Below are positions 1,455 to 41,876 of a stretch of DNA of 41,876 nucleotides, piece by piece. The DNA is from Atractiella rhizophila. Lineage: Eukaryota. Location of the stretch: positions 91,903-133,778 of the forward strand of contig MU271229.1 in assembly GCA_021432655.1 (NCBI GenBank). The letters are read 5' to 3'. Under the pieces are notes generated by a model. It saw nothing but the letters and a program-made list of their open reading frames with translations. It searched no databases and had not been told where the DNA came from. The translations under genes were made by a program, and so were the position numbers. Every line of letters begins with the position of its first letter. The first letter of the stretch is position 1.

Positions 1455-4400
1455 CTAAAGCTGTTCAGTTGTGTTCTGAGCCATGTCTCCCATTTCCCAC
1501 AGTCTCCGGAAGTGGCTGGTACGATCCTCTAGCAGAGTTTTAGGATGGTCATCTTCAACCAACCTTCCAGCATCGAGGACAAGTACGCGATCATAACCTG
1601 CAGAATTATCAGCTAAGGACAAAAAGAAGCAAATACCGCACCGAGAATGCTTCGAACCCTATGGGAGATGGAAATAATCAAACTATGTTCGAACTCGGTC
1701 GCTAGCATGGACTGCAATGTATCTTCGACAGAAGCACTAAGTGAGGAGAAGGATTCGTCCAGAATAAGAATGCGATTTTTGTTCAATAAAGCCCTAATGG
1801 ACGGTCACCTCCCATGGTAGGCAGAGAAAGGCGGGCACCGTACCTTGCAAGGATGAGAAGCTGTCTCTCTCCCGCGCTAAGATTTGAGCCGCCTGAAGAA
1901 ACTGGATCCGACAAGGAGGCACGTAAGGGATAACCAACTAGATGCAGAGCTCGTTGTATTTCCTGCTTCTAAGCATTAATGCCAATTACTTTCATATATG
2001 GGAAAAGCAGACTTTATCATGATGAGCACCAACGTCATCAAGAGCAGATTTAATAGTTCCTTCCGTTAGCGTGCCAGTCGAGTCTTGTGTGAGAAATGTG
2101 ATACTCTTCCTCAAAATCTCCAAAGGCACACGTCTCAAATCCAATCCGTCAATTTCGATCTTCCCCTCCGAGTTCCAATCCACAAATCGCATCAAAGCGT
2201 TGACGCAAGAGCTTTTTCCGCTTCCGGTCCTCCCAACAATAGCGATGCGATGACAGCTGGCTGAAGAAAGCGTGATATTGATATCCGACAGAGCGGCTCG
2301 CCCACTGGAGGGATAACGAACCGTGACTTTGCGGAACGTGATGGTCACGGGCAATAGGGCGCTCTGTGATGACGGAGAAGGCTGAAAGAATGTTGACGGT
2401 ACTTGAATTGGTGAGCGTGTTTCTTCTCTTTGAAGCGACGTCAAGTCTGATATTCGCTGAACAGCCGTGAGGTTCAAAGCGAAAAGACACCAGGTTTTGG
2501 CCAGCCAGTAGAGACCAGACACAAGGTCGACTGCCTGAGATAGAGCATTCCCTATGCAAATCATGTTAGTCATTCATTCACTGTCCTGGAATAGAAGCAA
2601 ACCAAACGGAGCCGGGGGAACTCCATTCGTAAACGCCAACAGTGTGACCGCAAAAATGAGGAGCCTCCCCGCTAGTTCGTAACGGAGCAGCAACCATCTG
2701 TCCAAGGCGACCATGAAACTAGTTGGCGCGGAGTATTCATCAACCATTGTCTGAAAATTCTCGAGCAAAGCTTCTTCTTTCTCGAATGCCCGGATGACCA
2801 CGTTGCCACTCAGGGCTGCAGTGAACTGCGAAAGAACCCTTGCACGGTTTTTCGCCTCCAATCGATTCAGTTTCAGACTCAATCTGACGTAGCGCCGCAA
2901 AAGTCGAAAGCAGTACAAAAATGTGGGCAGGCATGCCAAGCACAAGATTGGCATCGCTTTGAATATCGCATTGAAGAGGCCTAAAAGGTATGAGCCGTTG
3001 TTGAAGCTGCAGTATTGTTAGTAAGTTGGGAAGTTGGGAAGCTACATAACACTGACACGAGGCCTAAAGAGATCACGATGTGGTTGTCAACAATAGTGAA
3101 GTCGGTGAAGCGGGCAAGGAAGGTTCCAGCGCCAATCTCTGAGTGAAGCTGTAGCGGAGCGTAAAGCAGCGATCGAATTGCCGACGCGAAGAGGTTTCGG
3201 CTCGCCCGTAGGCTGCCCCAGTAAGAGAAACCTATGTTGTTAACAGTAACAACGAGCCGGAGGAAGGAGAGAGAGAACAGCTGGAAAAGGTGCCACGCAT
3301 TTCTGCCATCCGACCATGCGCTGTACACGCTTCCTTCCTCAGTATAAAGCTGACGTATAACGAATATACCAGAAATCGTGACGACCCATGCGAGAGGACC
3401 AACTGCGCGAGCGTAGACCCAAGCTATGTACACGGGGACCGAGCCATGATGGTCCGGGAACGTTAGAGGGACAGTATTCTTCTCGATCCCGGGAGTGGAA
3501 TATTGCCGTCCAAGGGGAGAAGGTGTTTGCGATGTTCGGGCAGGCGGCTGAGCTAGACAAGTTTCTCCAGTCATTCGTCCGCCGTCCATCTTGAACACTG
3601 CAGTTGCTAGAGGTCGGAAAGCAGAAGGGTTATGGGTCGTGACCACCACCGTTCTGCCTTCCATGAGAGGGCTTTGAAAACAATACTTGAGGAGATAACG
3701 GGCTGTTTCGTTATCGACGGCCGCAAGTGGTTCGTCCAAAAAAATGTAACGATGAGAAGAATAGAGAGCTCGGGCGATTGCTATTCTTGCCTGTGAAGGT
3801 GTAAGATTTATGTATTCAAGAACGGTTTAGCTCACTTGTTGACCACCTGACAGCGTCGAACTTCCGGCACCAGTTTCTGTGAAGTCACCGTCTTTCATTT
3901 GGGCCTATGATCAACAATAAGTAAAAGAGCTCAAGAGAAAGTAGTGTATACCATGTCCGACACCAGGTTGCAAGCTTCCAACTGGCGCACTCTTTTCAGA
4001 TGGGAGAGCAGGACAAATGCAACAACGCACCACTGCACGATACCTCGATTCGTCCCATGGAGAATAAAAAACGATCTGTACGTCCACATGAGAGTCCAAC
4101 GAGTATTGTCGTTATGAGAACATACCTGGCTTCTAATTGTGCCTGACGCGCACCAAGGTTGTTGGTCAACGTAAGCAACACCGCCGGTTGGTCGTATGAC
4201 AGAACCTTGCGATAAAGACAATTCTATTATGCGGTGGTCAGCTCACTGCAGTAAACCGCTATAGCTTACCTCCCAACAAAGCGAGCAGCAAAAAGGTTTT
4301 ACCCGATCCACTGGGACCAGTAATAACAGTAATGCCTTCTCCTTGGAGCGAAAAGGTAAGATCACGAAGCCGGAATTCAAGAGTATTCTCAGCATTGTTT

Positions 4401-7058
4401 GATCTATTCGAGGTCGGACGGAACCAAGCGTTCGTAAGATGAAAGCCTTTATCCACTCCAATGGCGTCCCAGTCTCGAGGTTTCGTCTCTGTCTGTTGAA
4501 GATACTTTGCGATGCGGGTTAAGTTGGCCTTCACTATTGAAACCGTTAGCACCGTTTCAAGTTTTCCAGAAGCAAGGTACTATAGCTCAGATTCTCTACC
4601 AGTGAGCATCATTACTGTTAGTGGCAAACAAATGCTATGTGAGGGACTTACTAATTGCTTCAGGTAAAACGCCGAGGGGTAACGACAGCTGCTATCATCG
4701 TTAGCGCATAGTAGACGGGGATGTGAGTACGAACCTGCCGTATCAGAGTACTGACTGCTATAGCGGCGCTGAGATCGAACGTGGCACCTTGCACGACAAA
4801 GAACAAAAAGAAGCAAAGGCATATGATCAGGTCAGGACAAAGCATCCTGTGAAAATAGTGAGGCTAGCTTCTCAATGACGACATTCACGTACCAAAAACT
4901 GTTCAGGAGAGCTTGATAGCGCTTTTGGGCAGCCCAGAGGCCAAGAAAAGCGTTGCGATACCGGAGGACATCGGATAAATGCTTGTTTTCAGAGGCGCTG
5001 GCTTTGATGGACTTGATAGCTGTGCTATCGTTAAGCAAATAGATATGGACAGAGATGACCTACATCGAATGAGTTCGCTGATCCTCCCAATCGTCGCGTC
5101 ATGGGCACTGTTCATTCGAACTCCTACACGGAATGCTCTGACAACTGCCCAATTACTGGCGATGTAAAGAACCGTCAGAACAGCAAGGAGGGATAATAAG
5201 GCTCCCCAGCCCAAAAGACTGTAAACAGGATGAGGAACAAGCTGTTCGACAAAAGTAACATACTACCACGTCCAAAAGACTGTTCCACAGATAGAGATCG
5301 AGGGACCGAGAACGTTGTCTAGGTTGTGAGAAATGACGGAACCGATTGTGGCGCAGTCCTCTGAGATGAGGTTGTAGGTTTGTCCGCGGCTGCCTTGAGA
5401 GCTCTCATCACTTGTCGCCAGAGTGTTGATCCGCAGGGATTTTGCGTAGATAGTATTGATCAAACCTGTCGGTTGGTTCAGATGGAGCGGTAAGTGAAAT
5501 GCAAATACTCACAGGACTTAATTCGAAGTGCGAGTCTCTGTTGCTCCCACTGATAGAATGCTACTATGAGAGCGCGCAACATATTGATGATGAATGCGTA
5601 AAATGCGAAGGCAAAGATCCGACGACGATTCTCGTGGTCCGATGTTGCATTAGCCTGAAGGGTAGAGACAATTTCCGTGATATAGAAGATCGTAGCGAAA
5701 GAGAGGAACGTGGTGACGGAACTCAAGGCCAGGATGATGAATAAAGACTTTCTGGAGACGCGAAGCAATAATTTATACAGATCTAGTTCTGCCGAATTGC
5801 TGGTCGAGATATTAGCTTCAAATCCTGCGGCATGGGTGAACTTACGGAGTAAACGATGCACGGATCCAAAATCTAGCGATGTAATGACTTCTTTCGAAAG
5901 GGAAAAACTTCCAAATCCATTTGGAAATGTCGTCTGGCCCTTCTTCAACTGTCCGAGCATTTTCGCTGAGAGCAATCAGGGACCAAACCCACGAAAAAGT
6001 GGCACGGGAAATGATGGAGGAGGAATACTCTGGAGAGACATTATCCTGCATCAAGAAACGTCAGTCGTTATGGAAGAACATCTAGAAATCGAGATAAAGA
6101 GTAGCACAAGTCTGCTGTGTGTAGGAAAAGTTGTTCTTAAAAGGACCACTTTACTCTGCAATTCGCCTGCAACACTTCTAGACGAAGCACTACCATAAAG
6201 CGCAATGGAGGCATACTAGACGGAACAAAAACGCACCTCCCCTGCTATTATTCCTTGTGTTGTCGCTCCTCCTACCACCCACACGACGCCAGCACTCGCG
6301 ATCGCTTCGAAAGCCATGAGCACCGCCTCCGCTCCAGCTCCCAAGTAATCGCGCTGCACCAACCCAACCGTAGCGCACACCGCATCAAGTGTTGACCAGC
6401 CGATGAGGGGCCATTGAGCGCGGGGAAGGCTGTGGATTGAGAGGAAGGGGAGGAGAAGGGGAAAGAGTGAGAGGAGGGTTAGGAAGGAACGCAGTGAGGG
6501 TGAGGACGGGTTGGGCTTGTCCGATCGAGAGGAGAGGAGGAGGAGTTCCAAGTCGAGCTCATCGTCTATTGTTGGGGTCGACTGCAGCGCAAAGCTGCCG
6601 CCGCCGTTTGGGGAAGATGGACGTGGTAGGGTTAACCTCACCAGTTCCAATGATATTCTAATCCCAAGTAAAATGGCTGTCCCTTTCCATCTCTTTCGAG
6701 CCACTTTACTGCTCGCGCTCTCGATCTCAGGCCTATCCTTCTCCTCCAAATCCTCCATCTTGACCTCCATACCGAACCTCCGCGTGTCTTCCTCGTCCCC
6801 ATCCTTATCTACTCCATCCTCCAACCACGGCGCAGGAGAAGAAGGAAACAGGCTCGGTCGAGATCCTCTCCTGCCGTTGAGTGGGTTTGCTTTAGAGGAG
6901 GACAACAAGGAGAGGGCTGTTGTGAGACCGATACCACTACCACCCGCTGAGAGGGGAGACCGTCGGCGAGTGCGAGGAAAGAAGGGCAGGGGAAGGCGGG
7001 AGATGAACGGATAGAGGCAGATGGAGATAGAATAGAGCAGTAGGAGGTATTCATGCAT
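1455..7058 (-). CDS. ABCC/MRP-type full-size ABC transporter, multi-exon
   Basis: Two TMD-NBD halves. NBD1: GPSGSGKT, QQPW, LSGGQQ, IFLDEPLAAVD. NBD2: IAIVGRTGSGKSS, LSAGERQLL, ILILDES, SISHRV, YDRVLVLDAG. MRP-type L0 segment SPEYSSSIISRATFSWV. Stop TAG at 1455-1457; start 7058 is tentative. Confidence 0.92.
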
Positions 7059-8057
7059 GGTTGGTGATTGGATTTGGAGTCAAATCGGACGATTGAAGCT
7101 GAAACTCGTGAGTCGTTAGAGTGAGAGGGGTTATTATACCCAACTGTCTTGTGCTGCTGAAGAGAACAACAATCGAAGAGTTCGATCAAAGGAAGAGACC
7201 TAGCACTTGGGAGTAACTAAGGTGGTCCTTTGTTGAATCTCCCTTCTTTAGCTCAAATGTTGCTCTCAAAATGCACACGCAAACGCAAATACGGGCTGAT
7301 CGAATTAAATCGAATCAGATGACAAAAGGGAACACTAGATGCAAACATTCTGGCCAAAGAGAAGGTTATTCAAGGAAATCGTTCAGAAAAGGAAAACAGA
7401 TGCAAATAAGCCTTGTTTGTTTGGCTTATTCACAGGCCATCCTGTGAACCACGACAAAGAGTGTGCATGATCTAGATGAGCGGCCTTTCATGGCTGGATT
7501 CATCCAGTGACTCTTCAAAGCTTCAAAGCACTTTCAGGACCAAAATCATGAAATTGAATCTTGTTTGTTATGTTATCAATTTGAAAGCCGTTTGGCGTAC
7601 GTACGCCGCGTCCCTTTGCACAAAAACAACATCCAGGACAACACCAATCCCGGCAATCTAATGTAATATCCTGGATCCTCTGGGCAAAACTGTATATTGG
7701 ACTGGCTGCATGACGGACAATATGCGAAAACGGAATACGGGTCAGAAACATTAGAGGTTTCAAAGTTGGTACTGTAGGAAGGGGCTTCCTACTAACTGTA
7801 GCAGCCCAGTTTGAAACCCCCTATTGACTGGCGCATTTCATGGTCATTGATCACCTTTTCAGTCGCTTCCACTGTTCCTGCTTGGGATTTCGTAACCATC
7901 AAGAGCTTTTATACATTTCAACATTGCCTCATAACGACCAAAGACCTGAAATGACTGATCGCAACTCACGATCAATTTGACGACGAACAGATATCGACAC
8001 ATAAAAGTCGGACCACATAACTTACCTTGCGCAAAGACGGTGTGAGAAAACGTCCTT

Positions 8058-27859: not shown

Positions 27860-30800
27860 TTATCGTTTGGCATAACGCTGTCAATGACGTGGTCAAAAAG
27901 TGCCTTCAGTGAATTATGAATGAAGACGTACTAGGAATGTAGAAGCCACCACTGTTACCACTGCATTAAACACGGTATAAACCTAGAAACAAAGAACATC
28001 ATCCAACTAGATCAGAATCAAGCTTAGGGGGACTTACCACTAAGAACCCGAAGTTCCTGTACCTGTCACCGAAGCTAATCTGAAGAGGTGTGTAGAACTA
28101 TACCGTAATGTCAGGTACAAGAAAGATCAGGACGGAAGGGCCTGACCTCGTCTCCCACCTTGATGGGGCAGTATGAACACTCTGACGTAGCGGTAGGGTT
28201 GGCGAGGTAACCAGCAGTAGCGTTCACGAATGGCCCAGCCCACTGATCGCAAGTTTGGCCAGTCGGAGGGTCAAACACAAACAGTTCTGAGTCGTTGCAT
28301 GTGATCTCCAAACCCTTCAGTAGGCATTAGCCGTCTCCCAGTGATGGTGAAAGCACAGACGAACGTGAAGTTCGTTCGATACTAATCCGCCTATAAGGTA
28401 CGTCAGTGGATCGACGTAGTACAGCCCTTAGCATTCGTATGAGCGTTTGACACAAGATGGAAAGACGAGGTGCTGGTCTTACACGATCTCCAAAACTTTG
28501 GCATTTGTGGATACGGTATGGTAACCTAGGTGGCATCCATCAGCACAGAAGTGGTGCATAAAAGGAATCAAGACATACACCAGCGAACAGTGTGGTAATA
28601 ATCAAGAGGAAGGGATTGACCATTGCTGCGATGAAAATAGAAGGAGAGAGAGCTGCTATAGCTTGGCCTATGGTTACTGCCCACAGTTCCACGATCATCA
28701 CGATGAGGAAAGCATAACCAGCACGATCGCTTGACGTGTTGAAACCAGTTGGGTAGTACAAACAGATGAAGAATCCCACTCCGCACAAAACCGAATAAGG
28801 TAGCTCGGCGATCAATTGGGAGATTGAGAAGACAGTGGGGGAGTACATTTTGCTACTGGCTTCTCGAATGAAGACCTGACGAGCCATGATGAAGGTTGGT
28901 TCGATTTGTGAGATGATTATGGCTGTGTAGAAACAGGTCAGCTGGAGATGGAGCCGGAAAGGGTTCAGGGACAAACCAGGCATGACGGTAACAATGAAAA
29001 GGGAGAAAACTCTGTACTGCAGGCCGACGTAGTTTGCTGGGACGTTTAGGAACGTAAGTCCCGTGAGAAGCGCGATGACAACCTAAATATGATTTGCTAA
29101 GCACGAGGATGAGCCCCGACGTGTACTTACGTGTGCGAAGAGGCGAGTAAAGACATAGTCTGGGGATCTCCACAGGCTGCGATTGGTTCTTTCGATCACA
29201 ACCTTGAATTGCTGTTTGTGGTACCATTTAGTGAAAGACTTTCAGGCAAGCACAAACATACTGTAGACCACGGTGCGGCATATTCCAGGATCTTCTCATC
29301 AGAAACATCAGGTTCTGCCGCAGCCTGCTTGTTGATATCCGCGATCTCTCTCCTGACCTGCTGGAACTCCTCAGAGTCTCGCCATCGATCTCCCCAATCC
29401 TTGTTACCAATGCGTTTTTGGGATCCAGCTCCTTCATTTCGGTACAATGCGTGAGTTCATTCCGGAAATCTAGAGGGAGAGATAGGACGAACCAATGGCA
29501 TCCAACATGAATTCTGCCGGATTAGCGTTCGGAGGGCATTTAGCACCATTTTTTGCAAAGTAATCCCGTAGAACCTGCGAGTCTTTGCCGATTGGACCGA
29601 AGTAAACGCAGTTCCCGCCGTCTTTCAGAAGGAGCAGACGGTCAAAGTGCTCGAAAAGGAGAGCGTTAGGTTGATGGATAGTGCAGAGGATGCTTTGTCC
29701 TGCAGCCGCGAGTTTGCGAAGAAATCGAACGATGTTATAAGCAGATTGGCCCTTCATCCAAGTTCAATATGCGCGCGCCGCTTGAATAGGATACCTACGT
29801 CGAGACCAGAAGTAGGCTCGTCCAAAAACAGGAGGAGCTGAGGTTTGGCTGCCAACTCAACACCAATTGTAAGACGTTTCCTTGCTTCCACTCCCAAACC
29901 GAAACCGGGGAAACCAATCATGGAATCTGCGAGATCTTCCATCTCAAGCAGCTGGATAATCTCTTCGCAATACGCATCCTTTTCTTCCTTCGATACATGG
30001 ACTGGTTGACGAAGATAAGCAGAGAATCTGAAAGCTTCTCTGACGGTGGACGTGTATTGATGCGTGTCCAGTTGCTCGACGTCTAACATGTTCCATTAGT
30101 TGCAACATAACATGACAGGAAAAAAACCTACAGGCAGTTCCTCTCTGAAAATCCTTTCCGAACGCCCTTCCATTCACCAAGATATCTCCACCAATAACGC
30201 CAATCGTCTTGCGATCTGACAACTGTACAGCTTATCTTTAAAGAGTCCACTTTAGAAGGAAGGACTACGGACGACGTCGAGGAGGGTGGTTTTACCGGCA
30301 CCAGAAGCACCCATAAGTGCTGTCAGCGTGCCAGGTTTGACATAACCATAAACTTCATTCAGCAGTCTCCTTTTCCCACTACAAGTCATGTTACACATGG
30401 TCTACATGCAGGTCAGACTGCTTACCCAGGTACAGGGACATCGTAAATAACTTTCTCCCAAGTGAACGGAACTCGCTTCGTCGTGAGAGCTGAAAGGTCC
30501 TGAGTTCTCTTCCCACTCCTAAAATCTGCCTTGTTCGCTTGTAAATGCTCGTTAAGTTCTTTTAGTTCCTTGAGCCGGATCAGATTCATAGAATGGAGGT
30601 CGGCAAGTGACTTACTTTATTCTCCTTTTTGTAAACCTGAATCGCGGGCATGCCTTGACCAAGTCTGAGGTAAGTCGCCGCAAGCTGACGTAAAGGAGTG
30701 AGCCAAGTTTGCCTTATATTTGACGAGGACGCACGCATTGTAAGGTCATGAAAAGGGTGAAGTAAGCAACTAGGAATCCAAAGTTCCTCCAAGCTACTCC

Positions 30801-33755
30801 AGTCTCGTACTGGAATGCTGCGGAGATGTAATCTCCTCCACGAACGTACGGCTCCGCTGGGCGAGCACCTGTGGCGGCACAATTAATAGCAATATCAAGT
30901 AAGGAGAGCACTAACCAGGCAGAGTGCACACTTGATTCGGGCCAAGATCATTGGGATAACTATCAACGACTCCAGGTACATTACGTGGTATGACGTTACC
31001 GCCAGTGCAGAGCAGTTCCAGACCTTCAAATTCGTTGGACATCAAACCTTGGAATCCCCAGTTTACGGGATTGGCGTAGTACCTGGGTATCGTCTTGGTT
31101 AGCCGTTGAGTTGGCACCTGTTGAGAATACTTGCAGCCAGAAGAGCTGTTTTTGCATTCCAAAGACCGTCAGCTCTGTCTGCGGAGAGTGGGTGGAGATG
31201 GCGCACCCAACGTTTCATGCTGAAGACAGGAATGAGATAGCCGGAGTAGAGCACCATAGCGGACACAATTGCGGCAGCAAATCGAGCGGCAACATCGAAT
31301 GAGATGCAGCAGGCACCGAGCAATCTGAAGAACGAGGCGAGGGCGAGGAAGCCCATAAAAACCAAAGCCAGGAACGTGAAGAATGCGCCAGCAGTTCCTT
31401 TTAGACCTGTCATCCAGTAGAGGATTAGGGAGAAGAAGAGTATCTGTTCATGAATCAATAGATGACCTTATGTATCGTGTGCATACCTGGAAAAAGTTGA
31501 TTCTGTCACGGTTTTCAGTTGGAATGCGCTACAAGAGTCAACAAAAGCTCACGGGATGTCAGCCAGAGTGGAAGCGATTGATAGAGCCGCCGGCCGGTAG
31601 AAAGCAAAACCGCGATGCCTCCAGAGAATAGGACGACCTAGCATTTGAGTCGGAAGTTCGTTGAAAGCGTTGAAACTGTTCAAGAGCAAAGCCAAGAAAA
31701 GAACACCACCACGAGTGAAAGCGCCAGCTGAAGTTTCAGGAAGGTTGAGGTAGACAGAACCGGTGATGATGGCGATGGTGATACTGGTGATGTAAGCCAC
31801 AGAGAGCCCTAGACAACAAAATCATCAGAATTGCAGTCAAGAGATGGGAAAGACATACCTAGGGTGTCTTGAATACGAAGCCGAAACTGTCTCACGGTCA
31901 AGGCCCATATCTGATCCAAGAACGAGACCTGGTATGGGCTTTTCCCGGAGAGAACAAGCGGCTGTTTTGCGATTTTATGAAGGAACCTAAGCTCCTTTTC
32001 AAACTCGGGGAGCGCCTTCTCTACCTCCTCCTTGTATTCCCGCATATCCTCCATCAACACTTTGTTGTAGGAGCTCTTGAGGAACGCCTCTTCCAGCTGC
32101 TCCGGAGTTGAGGGCACACTAGAAGCGTCCTTGCCGTCTTGAAATCGACGTTCGTTGGGATCAGTGCAACCGGTAAGGTAATCGGCAGTGGTTTGACGAG
32201 GAAGGTCTGCAAAACCGAGAGACACGAAGTATGCTCGAGCCTCTGCCGCTGGACCATAAAAGACACATCGTCCGTCTGTGGAATATGTTGAGCGAAATTA
32301 GATGACAAGCCAGAGGAATGTACCGTCAATTACCATAACTTGGTCAAATTGCTCGTATATCCCTTCTCCCGCTTGATAAAGCGAAACGAACGTTGTTCCG
32401 TCGAAAACATCCGTCATCACTCTCAAGGACTTAGCGTAATCCAGAGCGGTAGAAGCGTCAAGACCGCTATATACTCCATCATCACTAATAATGACAACTA
32501 TGAAAGACGAACCGGGTCGAGTTATCCCAAGCCTGTACGATCGCTCTGGTGACCATCATTTCGGCAATCGACACCCTCTTCCTCTCTCCTCCAGAGACGC
32601 CTCTCACAAACTCATTTCCAACAAGGGTATTCTTCGTGTGCGGGATGCCCAAGATCTTAAGAAGGTATTCAACAATCTTAGTCCTGAAAGCTGCTCGGGA
32701 TTTTTCGTCCGCGAGACGCAGTTGATGAGGAGGCGTTTTGTTCCGGAGGGCAAACTCCAACGTCTGCTGGACCGTCAAGGTAGGCAAATGATTTTCGTCT
32801 TCGGGGCAGTAAACGACCTCCCCTTCGTACCTTCCATGCCTCCCAAAATTCTCAGCTGCCAAACCGCCGTAGGTCACGTCCCCTTCGACGCTCAGAAAGC
32901 CAACCCGCTGGTTGGATATATTCTACAACAAACTTCAGTAACGCGTAGAAATGCGCTGGACACATACCTTGAGGAACGTTGTGCACCCGCTGCCGGGTCG
33001 ACCGAGCACCAGACACATTTCTCCTGGTCTGAGAAATCCATTGAAGTTGTGAAGAAGGGTTTTGGTCTAGATCAACTTCAGTATCGTGCGAAAGGACTAG
33101 AATTGAGCCACCTTGGGAGCAAATTTCGGGAGCTTCATCATAAGAGGGAAGACAGGTGAGAGGAAGAACTCGATGACAGCGTTCGGGAAGGTCCTGATGT
33201 TGATCTACGCCTTTTTGAGTTTCAATTTGTGGCAAAGAAGAGATAATTGACCTTGATGCCTCCAGTTCCTTTTACAGTCAAGTTTTGCCATATAACACCC
33301 AACTTCCTCGCACCAGAACCAGTGAACTTCTCCTGCCGTCCTTCCTCAGCGGTTCCCATCTCCAAATCACCTTTCTTCATCTTCTTCGCCCTCTCCCTCT
33401 TCGCCTCCTCCAGTACTGCATCTCTTCTCTCTTTGTCACCTTTCAAATATTCAAGCAAGTTAAACTCTTCATCTTCATCTTCTTCTGCGACATCCTTAAG
33501 AGCTGGGGATCCACCCTCTTCCAGCTGCGAGCTCTTCCGTGTGGATTGCCCTCGGAGGTGTTCTTGTAAAGAAGCGAGTTCGACTTTTGCAGCATTGGTC
33601 GACAGAGGATGCTCTGAAGGGGACTGCTCTGGAGTTGGAACCCTCGTGTGGTTGTCTGAGTGGACTGGTGCGATCAATCAGTCCTTCGTACCAGTGAAGA
33701 GTACAGAGCTAAAAAGGAACGCGAAACTGAGGGGTCGCTTACTTGAGTCCGTCAT
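27860..33755 (-). CDS. PDR-type (ABCG, SNQ2-like) pleiotropic drug resistance ABC transporter, multi-exon
   Basis: NBD1: [42 protein letters not shown]2: [64 protein letters not shown] extracellular Cys motifs present. Ends RYAKR-TAA at 27860. Confidence 0.97.
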
Positions 33756-34880
33756 TGCGACAACCCGATTGCGCTTCCCTTCAACTCACTGACAAGTCAG
33801 ATGGAAGAGAGGAAAGATATTTGGCAATGGGGGACTTTTAGCCCCACCTGCCCCGCTGGTTTTGTACCAAGCGGATGAAGCCTTCGCAATCGCCACGGCT
33901 AAGGTCAAACTCCTGACCTTGACTTTGAAAGCCACAAGTTCCTCTCTTTCATGCTTAGCTAACTCCACTGAGAACAATAACACATACCGGCGGCATTGTT
34001 TGCATTGTGGGGCATCTGTCAACATGTCCATGTCAATGGCGGAGTCCAGCGAGCGAGTAGTCCGCGCGAACCGTGGTTCTTTGCAGGAAGCGTCGACCTG
34101 AGGAGTTGGAGTGAGTAGCTTTAAAGCTCGTCCAAAAGTGAATGCCAGTGTGCATGTTAGCGAAAGTGATGGTTTCTTCAAGTCGTAATATTGGAGAGAG
34201 ATCATTCGCTTGAAACGCAGAGTCTGCTTGTGGGATTTCGGAGTTGTGTTTCGATCACCACAGTGGGCCAGTGGGCACTTCTTTTCTCTTCAGTTCCGCA
34301 CCTGCTGCAGAGCCTAAGAGTTTGCATTGACGTTTCTTATTGATGCGCAGAGAGCGCTGAACCCACTGGGTTCAAAGAAGGAGACCCACAGGTGTGAGAA
34401 CTTGCTGCCAGTGGCTCCCACACCATCATGTCACTGCTCCACGACGACGAGGAGATCTGCCTCCTCACTGGCATCTCCCTATTCGGAGGTAGCTTTAACA
34501 TCAAACACCCCGCTTCCATTTTAGCACCATCATCGACACCGTCTACATTCTATCGATGCTTCATAACAGCAACGAACAACCCACACACTGCAATGGCTAA
34601 GCCTCCAAGTCTCGAGCCCCGCTAGCTATTGGCTGGAAGGAATTCAGCATCATGGAATGTATGTCGTTCCACTCCCGTATCCTGCCTCTTCCTCATCTTT
34701 TCCGAACTGTTTCAAGGGCTCCTTAAGCTGAGGCAGGTTATACGGTTTGGCGAAATGTCAAAGAGCTTGGGCTAATGTGTTAGCCTTGTTCACGCCCCGA
34801 AATAACTTTACTTATATGTCGATAGACAGGCGATGGGGTAACGATGATTCTGTCATAACCGTTTTCTAAGTAGCGAAAGC

Positions 34881-35180
34881 TCATCTAATCCTTCTGTCAG
34901 CATTGCGGCTGTCAACACCGCAATGTTTTCTGGGACGGTGCTCCACAACCTTCTTCATCCTCCCGAGAATAGTTTCGTCTAGCCACACATGCTTGATGAC
35001 ACCGTACCCTGTCCCGTCTTCAAACTCGCAAGTCCAAACTTGTGTACCGCTCCCCGTAATCGAGTGCTTTTGAAACAACCCTTCTGTCATGACGTTAGAT
35101 GGCTGCCCCTCGACCTTCACAACTCCAGCTGTAGTTTATTTCCCCCCAAGCACTTATCGTGTTTCCTCTCCCATCCGTCA
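34881..35180 (-). pseudogene. Fragment resembling the N-lobe of a fungal-specific FunK1 (Pkinase_fungal) kinase
   Basis: LFQKHSITGSGTQVW...GVIKHVW resembles the FunK1 LF.R.SL.GRGT.VW...VIKD.W pattern. No downstream HRD/DFD-type motifs found and the frame stops at 34881. Confidence 0.45.
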
Positions 35181-36387
35181 AGCGTACCTGACACAGTTCA
35201 TTGGATCACCTATTAATGTATGCCCCATCCTACGTCCTACCAAAGGCAGCCGAGACTGACGTGTTGCATGTTGTCAGATTGGATCATCGGCATCATCTTC
35301 CTCGTCGCCATCAGACTGCTCATCGTGAAGATGACGAGGAACCCTCGCAATGTTCGGGAATAGGTTCAAAATGCTCTGGCTTCATCCTTCACACGAATCT
35401 CCGGTAGGAGCTGATGGTCAGTGACTCTCAGTCTCGAGGGGTGAAACATACGCTTGTTTCCCTGTCGCATCGCGACGAAGAAAATGGGTTTGAAACCACC
35501 CCGATAGTAACCCTCTCTTTCGACGAACGATCGAAAATATGCGACGGGCGGCAACATGGGTTCCTCCAATCCTGGACCATCTTCTCTCTCACTCCCACAA
35601 AAGGATGGAAAGGGAAATGTAGGATGAATCAGATCGTCTATGCTTGCAACATGCTGTAGTGGATGAAGGTTCATGCGGTAAGGAGTGGAAGGAGCAGGGA
35701 AATGAAGGAGGATACTGGTGGAGAAGAGGGAGTGGATAGAGCCGCTCACGGGAAGTGGAAAGAAAAGGGGAACTGTGGAGGAGGATCAATTCGCCTGGTG
35801 TTATCCATGAGTTATTCAGTGTCTCATATCCGTATGCAGATGTCTCAATGCAAACCAAACCGACGTTTTCTCGTGCAGTCAAGACAAAGGTGTCTGCCGA
35901 ACCACCCGAGTGTCTCAACTCCATCATATCTCCTTTTGACGTCGGCAAGCGCAAGCGGCCCTTCGATCCACGAGGGAACGATTGCGGCTTTCCCTGCCCC
36001 TCAAACAATTTGCTCGACTGGCCTTTATGATGCGGCAACAGGGAGGGGGGAGTATCAGCAGTGATATGCGGGACAGCGGCCACGTAACCCTTGAACCAAC
36101 AGCGCACTTTCAGCACACCCGTCGCCCAAAGGCTGGAAGTTGGTCGGCGATAAAATTGGTCGACTAGTTCTGACCTGCTTTTTGGCTGCAAATTTTCTCA
36201 AGCGCAAAATCATTTTTCGCTTGCAGCCTAACCCGCCGCTTGCGGAAACCCCTAGGAGCGACCAGTTTGCCGGGGGCAAAATATGGAGCGTCGGTTTTGG
36301 TAGTTCTTTGTCTTCCCAAAATGATGGATGTGGTGACAGATCAGGCAGCGACGGATTTGTAGAGACGAACGCGGGGAGTTGATCAGG

Positions 36388-36435
36388 AGCAGCAGGGTTA
36401 ACCTGAAGATTAGCAGGAGGGTTAACATGAAGGTT
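36388..36435. repeat. 24-bp tandem duplication inside the Q/P-rich minus-strand ORF (NLHVNPPA / NLQVNPAA)
   Basis: agcagcagggttaacctgaagatt / agcaggagggttaacatgaaggtt, 3 mismatches. Confidence 0.8.
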
Positions 36436-37014
36436 AGGCACAGCGGGTACAACAGTGTGGAGTTGCCGATGGTGAAATGGATATGATAATTTGTGCCCGG
36501 GTGGAAGTAGCGGTCGCATGAAAGGCTCCAGCAGGAGAGGTTGGATTACATTTTGTGTAACAAACGTAATCTGCGGCTGCAACTGAGGAGGGTGGAAATT
36601 ATGGGAAGGAGCCGAAGTTCCCCAGACCCGGCTGCTCATATTTTGATTCGGATAGGATGTCATGCGTTGTCCTTCAGGCTGCCATTGAGATTGCTTCTGA
36701 TCATCTTTCGTTGCCGGTACAAGGAGATCCGAATTCTCACGTTTCCTCTTCTTCCCTGCTATTCCCTCACTGTCATCGTCGTCTTGAGTGAGTAACAAAC
36801 GCGGAACGACAAGAAGGAAACATCTGTCCCCTTCCTTAATATTTTCTGATACTCTCCGTCCTGGATCATCGATAAAAGAGGTGAACGGGGGTTCAGCAAA
36901 AGCGCCAGAGAAGGATGTGCCGACTGTCTCATCTGCGGGTCCTAAGGGTGTGATTTTGACGTTATTTTGTGCCGTGGAAGAAGGGTTCTCGGAATCGGAG
37001 GTTACAGTGATGTT

Positions 37015-37520
37015 CCATTCTACCGTGAGGAAAAATTGCTTTCGTCTGGAAAAGTCAACAATGAAAGCAAGTCAGCACACCACGACTGCTATGGAAGAAG
37101 TCGAAAGCGCGCTTATCATCCCATTTGCTACTATTCAACTCTCTTCGCTCCATGCCATGCCGACGGGCATTCGCCTCACAATCCGTCCGTGCCTCTGAAT
37201 TCTCCTCTCCCACTCAATCCGTTTCTTACTCCTCCAATTCTCTGTCAAAAACGGGTCACGTTTCACGTCTCCCAAACCATTCCCACCCCTCCAAATATCT
37301 CAAATCATTGCCCATCTCCATATATCCATACTGCTTCAGAGGAACGTATCCCGCCACATCTCTGAGCCCATCGTTCGCCAAAGTTCAAAATTGATTTGTG
37401 AGCCTGGACACACGCAGCCCTGCAGGTTCGAAGAGAACAGCGAGGACAGGTATATTTAGATGGGCCCAACTGGCAGAATCGGATGTGCCGTTGTTGGTGG
37501 CAAATGCAACGGGGACTCTC
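37015..37520 (-). pseudogene. BCD1: Frameshifted copy of the N-terminal half of BCD1 (box C/D snoRNA biogenesis factor, zf-HIT/ZNHIT6)
   Basis: Blocks in BCD1 order but in different frames: CQLGPSKYTCPRCSLRTCRAACVQAHK, DGLRDVAGYVPLKQYGYMEMGNDLRYLE, IVRRMPVGM/ERRELNSSKWDDK, RKQFFLTVEW. About 4 frameshifts, including a CATGC tandem duplication at 37151-37160. Confidence 0.8.
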
Positions 37521-37581: not shown

Positions 37582-40214
37582 ATGGAGCTGGGCCTGTTTT
37601 ACGCCGTTGTCGGAAAGGACATTTATGACCCTCCAGCATTCATTAAGACGTCAACCCAATTTCCACTTGTATCCGAACTCAGAGCTCAGCTTCAAAGCGC
37701 CACTCGAATGACATCACTCACCCTCCCAACAGCGAGTGAAGGGGCTTGTCGACTCAGGCTTTGGAAAGTCGACGCCACTCCCACGAGCAAACCACTTTCG
37801 GTACTAAAGTCGCATCTAGACTACACGGAATCGGTTATCCGATCGCTCACGTTTCCCTGGAGCCTTCCCGAGAGCGATCATCATGCTGCTCCCCCCGAAG
37901 ACCCTCGTTTGGTATTGGAGTTTCTTGCTCCAGGTGATCCCCTCAGCGTTTATTGGACAACTCAACCGGATGTGTCTCGCCTGCACATTATTGCAGAAAT
38001 TCTGCCGTGTCTCCCTTCCGATTGTGCGTCAGTCTCATCTCCAGCACTTTGCGTTTTTCTCTGATTAAATCATCAGCATCGACATGGCAGCTTAAACCCC
38101 ACAACCTCACAGAAATACAACGATTGGCGCGTTTCCAAGTTGAAAAGCAGCGGTCGTTTCCTCCATCCCTGGTTTTGAGGAATAACATCCACGACGTTAC
38201 ACTGAGGTCTCCATCCGTGCTTAAGGACGCGAAAGATGAACTAGAGAAAATTTTCATCGTGCCCCATGGAAACAGGAGCAATCTTGGTCCATACGTTGGG
38301 GTGGCCAACGCTTTTGTGTCCGAATTTGGTGATGGTCAAGCTACTTCAGACCGGCTGGTGACAAAGACAGAACTTATCCACTATTCTACAGCCGTAGAAT
38401 ATTGTGGCATGCGACTCGAGCGCTATCGTGAGGCTATGCAGGCATATTTCAACATGACGTTCATGGATCCCGTCGCGATCGAGCTAAGTTCCCGGTTGGG
38501 TGTGCCCTTGAGGTCGAATTTTTTATCGTAAGCTCACTTGCGATACCTGGTTCAGAGCCGACACTTCACTTTACAGCAATAGAAACTGGAAATTTCACTT
38601 ACTGCCTTTCATATCCAAGCCGAATGAGCACGGGGAGACGAAGACTACTCAGTTTAAATATCAACCTCGAAGTGATTACGAGTTTCGAAACGACGCCGAC
38701 AAACTGCCGCGACTTTTAGTGCAGATTCAGTCGCATGTGGACCAAGAGGACGAAACGCGAATGCTGCTACAAGCTGCTGTTGTGGTTAGGCTCGCGCAAA
38801 ACGCCATCAACAAGAGTGTGATCATGGACAAGCGATGGCGATTCATCATAACTTGTTACTATGTGAATAAAGAGCTGGAGGTTAAGCGTTACCTAATGTG
38901 TAGTAAGGCTATCGAACAGCCTAGCGTGAGCGCATCACTATTCAGAAGCTCGCTCTGAAGGTTATACAGGCGGAGGTTATTTACCGATGTGACAAATTTT
39001 GTCTCACCTCTCGGCGGGATGCATTCAAGTTTCTCCTCGGTCTGTACAATTCACCATCTGTGATCGACTGGAGGCATCCCATCGATTCGGAAGATATTCA
39101 GCTAGACCTGAATGACGTCGAGTTAAAGAAGTACAAATCTTTGACTACGCTTGGCAGTGGCCCGACAAGCCGAAAGCGCAAACCGGCTGACGATAATGGC
39201 GGCGACCAGTCTCAAGCCAGGACGCCAAAGTCGCAGAAAGTAGATGATCCTGCGGTCACAAACGCTCTTCAGAGCGCAGGTTACTCCCTCATCCGCCCTG
39301 ACCCCAATCGTTGGACCCTTCTTGACGAGGTGCGTACTGGCTAGCCGAGAATTTCAGCATTAATGACAACATTCCAGCCGTCATCCATTTCTTCCCCGTC
39401 AGTGGCGATCGTTCGGCGACAAGACGAAGAGGAACAGCAGTTCATCATCAAGGTAGTTGAAGGACCCGATTATGAAGAAACGGAGATCCACCGTTCTCTC
39501 GCCTCCATGGCCGACCCGAAAAATCATACCATTAAGATCATCGAAGTTTTGGAAAGTGGAGGCTATCAAATTCTTGTTCTTCCACTCGGCAAACCTCTCC
39601 GCACTCTCAAAAGTCAACTTGACACTGCCCTCGCGAGCTCTCTCTGTGAGCAACTGCTCGAAGCTGTCGGTTTTATGCACAGTCAAGGCTTTGTGCACTT
39701 GGATTTGAAACCCGATAACCTCGTTGTCACCGGCGATACTCTCCAAATAATTGACTTTGGACTGTCTTGTCGAGTTGGCTCCGACACATTATTGAGAGGT
39801 TTCAGAGGGACAACAACATGGGTTGCCCCCGAAGTCGGGGAAAACGAAGGACCGAAGCAGACGTTCGAGCCCATCCCTGTCGATCTTTGGGCTACTGGAA
39901 GCATTATTCTTCGTTTCTTTGGTGCATTCCTCCCAGCTGGCCACCAGCTTTTCGACCTTGCAGGGCAATTGACCTCCCCTGATCCGAAGGCCCGCCCACG
40001 CTTGGATCCAGCGCGAAACCTTAAAAAGAGGCCAATTGAATCTCATAATCTGCCTCTTACTAAACACATGTTAGTCCATCCTCCCACCGTTTGTTCGAAG
40101 TTGATTTATATTCATAGCAGAAGAGACTATGCTCAGCACTCGAGACTAGAGTATGCACGCGAGTTCGGATACCCATACTCCGTGCAGCCCTTCGAACAGA
40201 CTTCCGTTCGATAA
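37582..40214 (+). CDS. Crinkler (CRN)-like protein: Ubl-like CRN N-terminal domain + PD-(D/E)xK-like middle domain + C-terminal protein kinase, multi-exon
   Basis: Header: LFYAVVG...LVSELRAQL...LRLWKV...LAPGDPLSVYW...P...LHIIAEI. Middle: YQPRSDYEF...LPRLLVQIQS...DETRMLLQAA...FLLGLYN. Kinase: FIIKVV, EETEI, HLDLKPDN, IIDFG, GTTTWVAPE, DLWATG. In-frame GT-AG introns at ~38926-38969 and ~39330-39377. 5' introns and exact stop uncertain. Confidence 0.8.
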
Positions 40215-40285
40215 GGTCCGGGACTCTTCCGTTACGTTTACACTGTTCTGCGATATCTCCTCTTTCAACATTTGTTCGTTATCCG

Positions 40286-41630
40286 TAAGGCATCGACACG
40301 GTCCACCGCGGGGGGACGCGGGGTAAACGTGCGGTTTCGTGGCCCCCAAGTCCAGACCGCAATCCGTCCTCGTCTCCTTCGACGAGGACCCCGTACCCCC
40401 GGCGAGGAACCGTACGAGGAGGCGGGGAGCCCACGGTGACGTGTATCAAAGGTGACAAAGTTGCATAAACGTGGCTGTAATTGACTGCTGATTAGGGTAC
40501 TAGTAAGATGTCATTAAAATAAAATGCAATTTGAATTTTAAATGTTCTCCAAAGTCTCATAGGGATATCACTTCCTTCTCATTGGTCTTTTGCTTCTTCT
40601 TTGGCCTTTTCTCCATCTTGTCTGCCTTCTCAGCCTTTAACATCCCTATAAGCCCAGGCAAACTGGGGAGCATGCCCTGCTCGTGCCACAATCTCAACAT
40701 GGTCTGAGAGCGGAAAGTCTCGTCTTTCATGGAAAGGCGGAGGAAAGTGGCAATTTCCCCTCCATCTGAGAAGCTACGTTCGAGGTCGGCCGTGTGTGCT
40801 GATGTTCATGTGAGCCGCACGAGCAGATTGACAACTAAGTACTTACCTGGGACCGCGGAAATGTCCATCGCACACTGATGGAAACTCCTCTCAACAGCAT
40901 CCGGCGCTTTCTTGTAGCGTTGATAGTGGTACCGAAGAGGGTCAATTTTCTTCATAACTGGCTTTCCATTGACCTTGCGCCGCAACGGATCAGGTTTGGC
41001 ATGGATGAAGGTATTGACCGGATTCTCAATGCTGCATGTAACATCTACAGATGTAGCGGCCAGCTGAGGATCATACTGAGCCAGTGTATTGAAATCCTTT
41101 TCCTTCAAGTTATCAGCACATTTCCACAATCAGTGCTTAAAATACCACCTCAGACGACACGGCAACATTGACAGCTTCACTCAATGTCTCAGTTGCAGCT
41201 GGTTTGTAATGTGTATCCCAAAAATTGTAAAGTGTTTTTTCAGCATCATTCATCCATTCCTCGTCCCAGTTTATCATCTTCAGATACTCCATGCGACGCT
41301 GTGGATGCAGCACTGTGGTGTTACAGTCAGCCATTAATTAATAACAAACAAGCTCAGGGACAAATTGACATACATAATGCCCAGATATAGATGTGCGATT
41401 GATCAGCACATTTCAGATAGTATTTGTCAAGTACCCTGTGAGCAATCTGACCACCAGCTTGAATTGCTGTGTGTGCTGTTGGCTTGACAATCAGTTTGCT
41501 AACAGGATCTTTTAGTCCTCGTAGATGTGCAAGAGATGCATGGCAATATTGTTGAACAGAACTACGATCTCTCCGAGGTCTGATGTGTCCGTCTTTGAAA
41601 ATTCTTCTAACAGTACTTTAGGGTTTAACC
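40286..41630 (-). mobile_element. hAT-superfamily DNA transposon, 3' half only (transposase stop at 40557; 5' part lost at the chromosome end)
   Basis: Spliced minus-strand reading: EEFSKTDTSDLGEIVVLF, IQAGGQIAHRVLDKYY, YIWALLLHPQRRMEYL..WDEEW, then the dimerisation domain AMDISAVPAHTADLERSFSDGG...LRLSMKDETF. One in-frame TAA at 41512-41514. The left boundary is inferred from a GC-rich subterminal block. Confidence 0.85.
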
Positions 41631-41781
41631 CTGTCTCTTTCAGGAATGAGATCCAGGCTGAATCCTTGCCTCCTGGCTGCCCAGGGTACAACCCTACCTC
41701 TGTCAGGAACAAGATCCTGGCTACATCCTTTCCTCCTTGGCACCCAGGATACGACCCTGATGCTGTCAGGAACAGGATCCC
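41620..41781. repeat. Telomere-adjacent 63-bp tandem repeat, ~2.6 copies
   Basis: CAGGAA recurs at 41641, 41704 and 41767; (A/G)ACCCT recurs at 41627, 41690 and 41753. Units 1 and 2 differ at 16 of 63 positions with no indels. Confidence 0.9.
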
Positions 41782-41783
41782 GC

Positions 41784-41876
41784 TTAGGGTTAGGGTTAGG
41801 GTTAGGGTTAGGGTTAGGGTTAGGGTTAGGGTTAGGGTTAGGGTTAGGGTTAGGGTTAGGGTTAGGGTTAGGGTTA
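41784..41876 (+). repeat. Telomere (TTAGGG)n, right chromosome end
   Basis: 15 perfect TTAGGG units plus TTA run to the end of the window, G-rich strand 5'->3' toward the end. Confidence 0.99.

Follow-up and report, generated by a model that had tools for sequence, protein, structure and literature searches.

The gene at positions 37582-40214 (+ strand) of a 41,876-nucleotide stretch of Atractiella rhizophila DNA, the whole of which is here called the window, is a new example of the known Crinkler design and not a new system. Its architecture is very probably that of a CR (Crinkler/RHS-type) gene of the class that combines a ubiquitin-like (Ubl) header with an REase domain and a kinase. A first-pass annotation of this DNA had proposed a basidiomycete CR-type gene, and the header, the REase-like middle and the kinase were all found; its further proposal of an undescribed system is not supported, as Ubl header, REase and kinase are already known together in CRs and in other fungi. 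The CR proteins of Zhang et al. 2016, as presented in the available text of PMC5289972, show the same three-part order, and resemble the window protein in their want of a signal peptide, multicopy nature, recombination at the header boundary and repeat-rich sites. In contrast to them, the window protein has a middle domain with neither a Pfam match nor the Lys of the ExK motif, and a header with two insertions that escapes the Pfam model.

Gene structure, transcripts and chromosomal setting

The exon/intron model drawn from the window DNA has six exons that encode a stop-free product of 796 aa and five introns of 44-53 nt, all of them GT-AG. Between the gene and the telomere there are two truncated repeats and nothing else.

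37582-38023, + strand: exon 1, CR header of 147 aa, predicted to be ubiquitin-like (beta-grasp), carrying LRLWKV and, at its end, LHII
38024-38076: intron 1, 53 nt, GT-AG, phase 1; the header boundary and, in paralogues, the site of head swaps
38077-38527, + strand: exon 2, helical linker and start of the REase-like domain, with conserved E..H
38528-38576: intron 2, GT-AG
38577-38925, + strand: exon 3, PD-(D/E)XK-like core, D...[E/Q]xxS...D..R...Q, with Gln in the assembly
38926-38969: intron 3, GT-AG
38970-39329, + strand: exon 4, last part of the REase-like domain, then a linker bearing the basic NLS-like RKRKP (39171-39185), and kinase strand 1
39330-39377: intron 4, GT-AG
39378-40069, + strand: exon 5, Ser/Thr-type kinase, non-RD (HLD), Gly-rich loop absent, Lys/Glu/Asp/Asn/DFG/APE present
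40070-40117: intron 5, GT-AG
40118-40214, + strand: exon 6, 31-aa tail and stop codon
40285-41605, - strand: 3' part of a transposon-like repeat, dispersed, 97% to a longer copy on contig C553
41604-41783: second dispersed repeat, one end only, with 63-bp units, of which 2.6 remain before the telomere cuts it off
41784-41876, + strand: telomere, (TTAGGG)n, 15.5 copies, contig end

The gene is real, intact and expressed. Four of ten listed runs (X1, X2, X7 and X10), all of which look like or are RNA, were aligned to it. The X10 contigs have all five introns spliced out, X1 has introns 2-4 spliced with intron 5 visible as a loose end, X2 has introns 3-4 spliced, and X7, a root metatranscriptome, contributes three contigs that are unspliced exon pieces. 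The intron-1 joint, which connects the header to the rest, is carried by a single X10 contig at a depth of 48, with a shorter side of 29 letters that falls just below the bar of 31 letters used for calling joints; second support comes from a loose end that fits the sister copy when spliced at the identical donor. The transcript evidence consists of partial contigs, none of which spans the full transcript, and transcription of the locus is seen across three studies with near-identical alleles. The earlier description of an intact gene is thus borne out by 796 frame-open codons that are spliced and transcribed, and every motif it listed was found at 37582-40214 on the + strand. It had also envisaged that header, middle and kinase might be separate transcripts; X10 has joints at all five introns, with the header-to-middle joint on one contig. 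A separate header transcript was not inferred from the header being uncovered in X1, X2 and X7, as those contigs are of low depth. Near 39128 in exon 4, X10 has an in-frame 6-nt insertion and about ten further differences, and at least three haplotypes of the locus occur among the window and the RNA runs.

The deposited protein model of this locus, P0001, has a kinase sequence identical to that of the window and shares introns 2-5 with our model; its start lies in a different frame, so that the header is missing. We rejected its first exon, as the joints listed from the four runs include none of that kind and the header frame is kept in 20 genome matches; the RNA joint together with these matches favors the header-containing model.

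The gene had been described as the last host gene before the telomere, in a subtelomeric, transposon-flanked site, and indeed it sits among repeats at the contig end, with only dispersed repeats and (TTAGGG)15.5 beyond it. The element at 40285-41605 (L055) may be hAT-like, judging by its motifs; its intron-split fragments gave no match in Pfam, including PF05699 (hAT dimerisation), and it is absent from the 131 genome matches in a PF05699 search. It is truncated by the adjoining element with 63-bp units, and its C553 copy runs on into transposase-like frames. The element at 41604-41783 (L057, L058, L059) is dispersed; one of its ends is fixed, and its 63-bp minisatellite varies in length. It has many copies, several of them near telomere arrays (C11, C113, C120, C418, C468, C495) and one inserted in a Pif1-like helicase frame. 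It may represent the end of a retroelement associated with telomeres; its examined stretches showed no reverse transcriptase frame. This end of the chromosome appears to have been reassembled from nested repeats not long ago.

Upstream of the gene, 33800-37480 is a mosaic of segmental duplications (C764 and C1622 at 90-97%, C808 and C491 at 87%). Here 34884-35135 is a fragment weakly like Pkinase_fungal (E 0.0012), 36055-37071 (- strand) is an unassigned 338-codon frame, and 36106-36276 holds a repeat of ~165 bp, possibly a MITE, with more than 30 genome copies at 79-87% identity, that also lies upstream of the paralogues L031 and L033. Further inward, 1995-7079 and 28543-33677 contain ordinary intron-rich genes with two ABC transporters (PF00005 match at 32488-32922) and, by their look, what we take to be a short-chain dehydrogenase, a P450-like protein, an MFS transporter and a SPOUT-like methyltransferase. 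At least five of the 30 loci of the gene family, the window locus among them, are no more than 30 kb away from a telomere array, with 25 of some 30 arrays listed; without the window gene and with the C403 copies counted once, at least 3 of 28 are that close, where 0.5 would be expected (P about 0.01, estimated roughly), which amounts to a modest lean of the family toward chromosome ends.

Header, middle domain and kinase

The structural model shows that the header folds as a ubiquitin-like domain. Exon 1 encodes the header motifs LFYAVVG, LVSEL, LRLWKV, PGDPLSVYWTTQP and LHII, and both LRLWKV and LHIIAEILP, the equivalents of LxLFLAK and HVLxxP, are conserved across the header alignment. The AlphaFold2 model of the header (pLDDT 82, pTM 0.81) has the Ubl domain of ISG15 as its best match in VIA-align (Z 8.1, rmsd 2.1, 75 residues aligned), and its best 50 structural matches are ubiquitin-like folds throughout by their titles or domains. 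Foldseek with this model returned nothing at E<=0.001 and only weak beta-grasp matches; superantigen rows in that output were set aside as reflecting the common beta-grasp fold and no closer tie. A PDB sequence search with the header profile likewise gave nothing at E<=0.001. The window's own header has no match to the Pfam Crinkler model PF20147; however, 14 of 18 aligned paralogous headers match that model at E<=0.5 (best 3.8e-8), the header of P0005 exceeds its cut-off, and genome-wide at least 31 Crinkler header matches lie over the Pfam cut-off. By profile, the proposed Crinkler similarity is thus seen in most of the aligned paralogous headers at E<=0.5 and not in the window header. The CRN-type Ubl header proposed earlier is supported by the Ubl fold in the model, by LRLWKV and LHII, and by the Crinkler matches of the paralogous headers. 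A simple hydropathy check of the N-terminus found no signal peptide, as had been stated before; the sole short hydrophobic stretch near the start (residues 3-11) is strand 1 of the Ubl model.

We consider it probable, with good confidence, that the middle domain has an REase fold, and nuclease activity would have to be rated below that. The motif PRSD...LLVQIQS...D..RMLLQ is present in the window, and a profile built from 16 exon-3 segments and searched against a protein library retrieved a family of 487 proteins at E<=0.001, 120 of them at 1e-10. Among the best 150 of the 487, the site residues are kept as D in 138, E in 136, S in 141, D in 144, R in 138 and Q in 121 (of 148-150), and the upstream E..H is conserved in 15 of 17 sequences; going by the alignment, the polar residues appear to be conserved like an active site. 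The canonical site of CR/Cif nucleases is given as E...D...ExK...Q in the available text of PMC11342252. This pattern is not found here: the ExK Lys is absent family-wide (Lys at E+2 in 5 of 148 among the best 150 relatives, with S, D and R conserved in its stead), and in the window Gln occupies the E position. As variant sites are common in the superfamily, the missing canonical site lowers the case for a canonical nuclease and not that for an REase fold.

Searches place the middle domain near, and short of, named families. In the Atlas feature search the nearest entries are PD-(D/E)XK families at 0.88-0.90 (PDDEXK_12), and its structural look-alikes are DUF7924, Uma2, PDDEXK_12 and McrBC (TM by query 0.54-0.70), in both cases below the naming bar; exon 3 alone scored 0.81 in the Atlas search, which is chance level. 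The REase-like middle of the first-pass annotation accordingly stands as a resemblance to PD-(D/E)XK nucleases that stays below the bar for a name. Pfam gave no match at cut-off for window exons 1-4, and for 108 members of the middle-domain family six single chance-level matches and nothing else. A PDB sequence search with the middle-domain profile gave nothing at E<=0.001, and low-sensitivity homologue searches by word index, run with the middle region or a full-length profile, returned P0001 alone. AlphaFold2 runs on seven full-length sequences modelled the domain poorly, with pLDDT <50 at 199-256.

The C-terminal domain is a kinase, matching Pkinase PF00069 with E 9.7e-24 (84.6 bits against a cut-off of 31.7), and its model matches the kinase fold with Z 13.5 in a structure comparison of the kinase part alone. 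Across all 20 full-length members there is no variation in the beta3 Lys, alphaC Glu, HxDxKxxN, DF and PE. The description of a compact non-RD kinase with HLDLKPDN, DFG and APE and no Gly-rich loop was right, as was that of a basic RKRKP linker (39171-39185), a motif present in 14 of the 20 full-length members. The window kinase shares its non-RD state with the majority of the family, and a GxGxxG loop precedes the beta3 Lys in just one of 20 members, so that both peculiarities appear to be mostly family traits.

Family evolution and the Glu/Gln position

The middle exon has 33 matches in the genome, which correspond by hand count to 30 distinct loci, many of them broken; the paralogues are thereby counted and mapped, as the first-pass annotation had suggested doing. 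Among 26 paralogue stretches, eight are free of lesions in exons 1-5, 13 have stops or frame changes, two are rearranged or unclear and three are cut by gaps or contig ends; the sister copy on C491 is broken by six frame-breaking indels. This background, together with the mosaic of duplicated segments and repeats in which the gene lies, is what would be expected if the window gene were itself a decaying copy, a selfish or redundant chromosome-end duplicate of no special role, with its Gln as an early loss of function or an assembly error. We regard this as improbable, given that the 796-codon frame is intact, spliced and transcribed in three studies from near-identical alleles, and that dN/dS against intact paralogues is well below 1. 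In seven paralogue pairs, of which some have saturated dS, exon 3 has dN/dS values of 0.14-0.30 and the kinase of 0.15-0.45, which shows that both the middle domain and the kinase are under purifying selection.

The family splits into two clades, and comparison of paralogues other than the window copy shows that heads have been exchanged between them at intron 1: L028 and L024 are 93% identical from the start of exon 2 onward, and in the header L028 shares 82% identity with L032, in the other clade. Header exchange is also seen in L027 versus L026, with the break at intron 1. Contig C411 has extra headers (L029 at 7174-7668, and L054) with no matched downstream exons, one of them beside an assembly gap, and C401 (L023) has two tandem copies with no matched kinase and a 1307-N gap nearby. 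The genome contains other CR families as well (L047-L053, on C418, C40, C475, C113, C391, C46 and C885), laid out as headers, often two or three in tandem, with a D...ExK-type domain after them and then an APH/kinase-like domain; in L051 the header is followed by a P-loop-like frame, and a tandem CR pair on C418 lies 12-14 kb from a telomere.

At the E position the window assembly has Gln where the family usually has Glu. The Gln reported earlier is therefore present in the assembly but absent from all four RNA runs, which have Glu in contigs otherwise at least 99% identical to the window. Glu occurs in about 15-16 of 18 paralogue segments matched by motif, a count in which the window is separate from the 18 printed rows, one Glu row is the second copy in L023, and the printed rows L021 and L022 have Gln. 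The Gln carriers among these segments are the window, its broken sister (C491) and a distant copy (C140), the latter two of which differ at the conserved Arg too. Among the best 150 of the 487 library relatives the position is Glu in 136, Gln in 6 and Lys in 4 of 148, and 4 of 19 records with a kinase have Gln. Gln carriers do not form one clade (p-AU 1.5e-8 on a 63-row tree from which rows under 78 columns and short Glu records were excluded) and keep the remaining site residues. Gene conversion from the C491 sister was rejected as the source of the Gln, as differences to C491 flank it on both sides within a few bases. RNA editing is unlikely to lie behind the Glu/Gln difference, since to our knowledge the change is not a known editing type, and since three runs agree against the window at a second window-private site. 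Hence Gln is a recurrent, tolerated variant that is not fixed at this locus, and for this reason it does not show a dead domain; the variant may leave activity as it is or reduce it. A precedent for catalysis with Gln, and cited solely as such, is MspJI, which in the available text of PMC3479186 and PMC2938202 cleaves DNA with a Mg-binding, required Gln at the equivalent position; these Mrr-like endonucleases differ in being bacterial, in having an SRA domain and in keeping the Lys (D-x20-QAK).

These observations bear directly on the reading first offered for this gene, in which the Gln marks the middle domain as a pseudo-nuclease that senses nucleic acid and the non-RD kinase delivers a self/non-self output. 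The invariance of the kinase residues in all 20 full-length members, among which the Glu position varies (Gln in 5, Lys in 1), speaks for it, as do the family-wide loss of the ExK Lys, a Gln common to the sister copy that may be old in the lineage, and the precedent of CidB, where an inactive REase domain is coupled to another enzyme according to the available text of PMC11342252. Yet a domain already inactivated by Gln sits poorly with Glu in all four runs at the locus and in 136 of 148 relatives, with Gln carriers outside a single clade, with retention of the remaining site residues in Glu and Gln forms alike, and with MspJI cleaving DNA by means of Gln. The kinase as output also sits poorly with CRN8 of Phytophthora infestans, whose cell death is independent of kinase activity: in the available text of PMC3426532 the kinase-dead D470N form still kills cells. 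We therefore hold this reading to be doubtful.

Possible function and relation to known systems

Past gene structure, splicing, header fold and selection, we infer each of the steps that follow. Our best reading, which we hold somewhat more probable than its contraries combined, is of a nuclear, kinase-regulated nucleic-acid-targeting conflict protein acting inside the fungus; the mechanism taken as a whole has about an even chance of being right. The family of about 30 copies evolves by birth, death and header exchange; under this reading, the unsecreted protein would enter the fungus's own nucleus by means of the basic linker motif. There, the PD-(D/E)XK-like domain would bind or cut nucleic acid as the output, by way of a variant site (E..H / D / [E,Q]xxS / D..R..Q) in which the conserved Arg perhaps replaces the missing Lys. 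The kinase may gate this domain by auto-phosphorylation, and the exchangeable header would set partner binding or triggering. The role would be in conflict within fungal cells, as defence against invading DNA or viruses or as non-self cell death, and would not be that of a plant-specific effector.

The kinase-gated reading inside the fungus is favored by several lines of published work. In the available text of PMC5289972 CR headers have a Ubl fold and no true signal peptide, REase+kinase pairs make up about one sixth of the CR C-termini in the published classification, and the REase is regarded as the toxic component and the kinase as its regulator. CRN8 has a CRN header, REase and kinase domains and an NLS as in the window protein, and differs, as far as the available text of PMC3426532 goes, in having an RD kinase, against the non-RD one here, and in being delivered by the pathogen into plant cells. 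Most CRNs of the root-associated fungus Rhizophagus irregularis lack a signal peptide and may act inside the fungus, according to the available text of PMC6131194. Some fungal NLRs, which are intracellular, are headed by Crinkler domains (available text of PMC9815663), and an animal Crinkler-like protein spreads with transposons (available text of PMC12957317).

The chief competitor is a plant-directed effector that would be secreted unconventionally and taken up by means of its header, would act in root-cell nuclei and would ease colonisation like RiCRN1 or CRN8. The host is a root endophyte of the Pucciniomycotina (described as such in the available text of PMC6450171), its header is of the LxLWKV type as in the Rhizophagus CRNs, most of them also without a signal peptide, and the protein has an NLS-like motif and belongs to a subtelomeric family of fast turnover. 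Oomycete CRN headers without a signal peptide are reported to be sufficient for delivery (available text of PMC5289972). The transcript pieces in the root metatranscriptome (three contigs, X7) fit a plant-facing role too, and so count against our best reading. However, the hydropathy check found no signal peptide, and RiCRN1, which shares with our protein the root-associated fungal host, the LxLWKV-type header and a predicted REase, was picked from the few Rhizophagus CRNs that have one; it is further set apart by belonging to CR-REase 5, by having been tested in plants and by having no kinase described in the available text of PMC6131194.

The distribution of the relatives also bears on the plant-directed role. 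When 26 longer relatives were scanned, 17 matched Pkinase, six Crinkler and four both. Thirty of the 487 relatives were looked up; the 24 with an organism name are one from Atractiella and 23 from 17 other fungal species, in genera that include Cyclocybe, Candolleomyces, Russula, Serendipita, Sparassis and Grifola. We take all 23 of these named outside relatives (P0014-P0158) to be from mushroom-forming fungi, none of them a rust or other member of the Pucciniomycotina, and many of the species to be wood or litter decayers. A family spread over decayers without a living host argues against a purely plant-directed role, which we consider unlikely, if less so than the pseudo-nuclease. The patchy spread of the relatives could reflect lateral transfer or loss. 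The direct relatives are unnamed proteins with Crinkler and kinase domains from Cyclocybe, Serendipita, Phellinidium, Russula, Candolleomyces and others (P0030, P0057 and P0156 among them), alike in the middle domain (E down to 1e-14), in kinase type and, in several, in a Crinkler header; they differ in having ~22-28% overall identity and are annotated merely as kinases or hypothetical proteins. Zhang and colleagues are said to have listed basidiomycetes among the CR carriers in 2016. The literature on CR-REases and on Crinklers in basidiomycetes or in this fungus, of which few subscription papers were covered, yielded no experimental work on a basidiomycete protein of this type.

A bolder proposal, which we rate as unlikely to the same degree as the pseudo-nuclease, is that these genes represent a basidiomycete-wide unannotated CR subfamily that would serve as an intracellular fungal immune or allorecognition system. 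On this speculative proposal the subfamily would have its own nuclease site (E..H / D / ExxS / D..R..Q, without Lys) and a non-RD kinase devoid of the Gly loop, the headers, swapped as whole exons, would be its sensors, and the recurrent Glu/Gln polymorphism, which would segregate at this locus and have arisen more than once among fungi, would tune the nuclease between killing and signalling.

Taken alone, the window copy changes little, as its design is known. What is noteworthy is the middle-domain family, hitherto without a Pfam model in spite of its 487 library proteins, the exon-wise swaps of headers and the Glu/Gln variation. The analysis restores the header missing from the deposited gene model, and documents a Crinkler repertoire with several C-terminal types in a culturable, non-pathogenic root endophyte of the Pucciniomycotina. 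It thereby makes testable, in a tractable fungus, the question whether fungal CR proteins that are not secreted have the plant as their target or work within the fungus.
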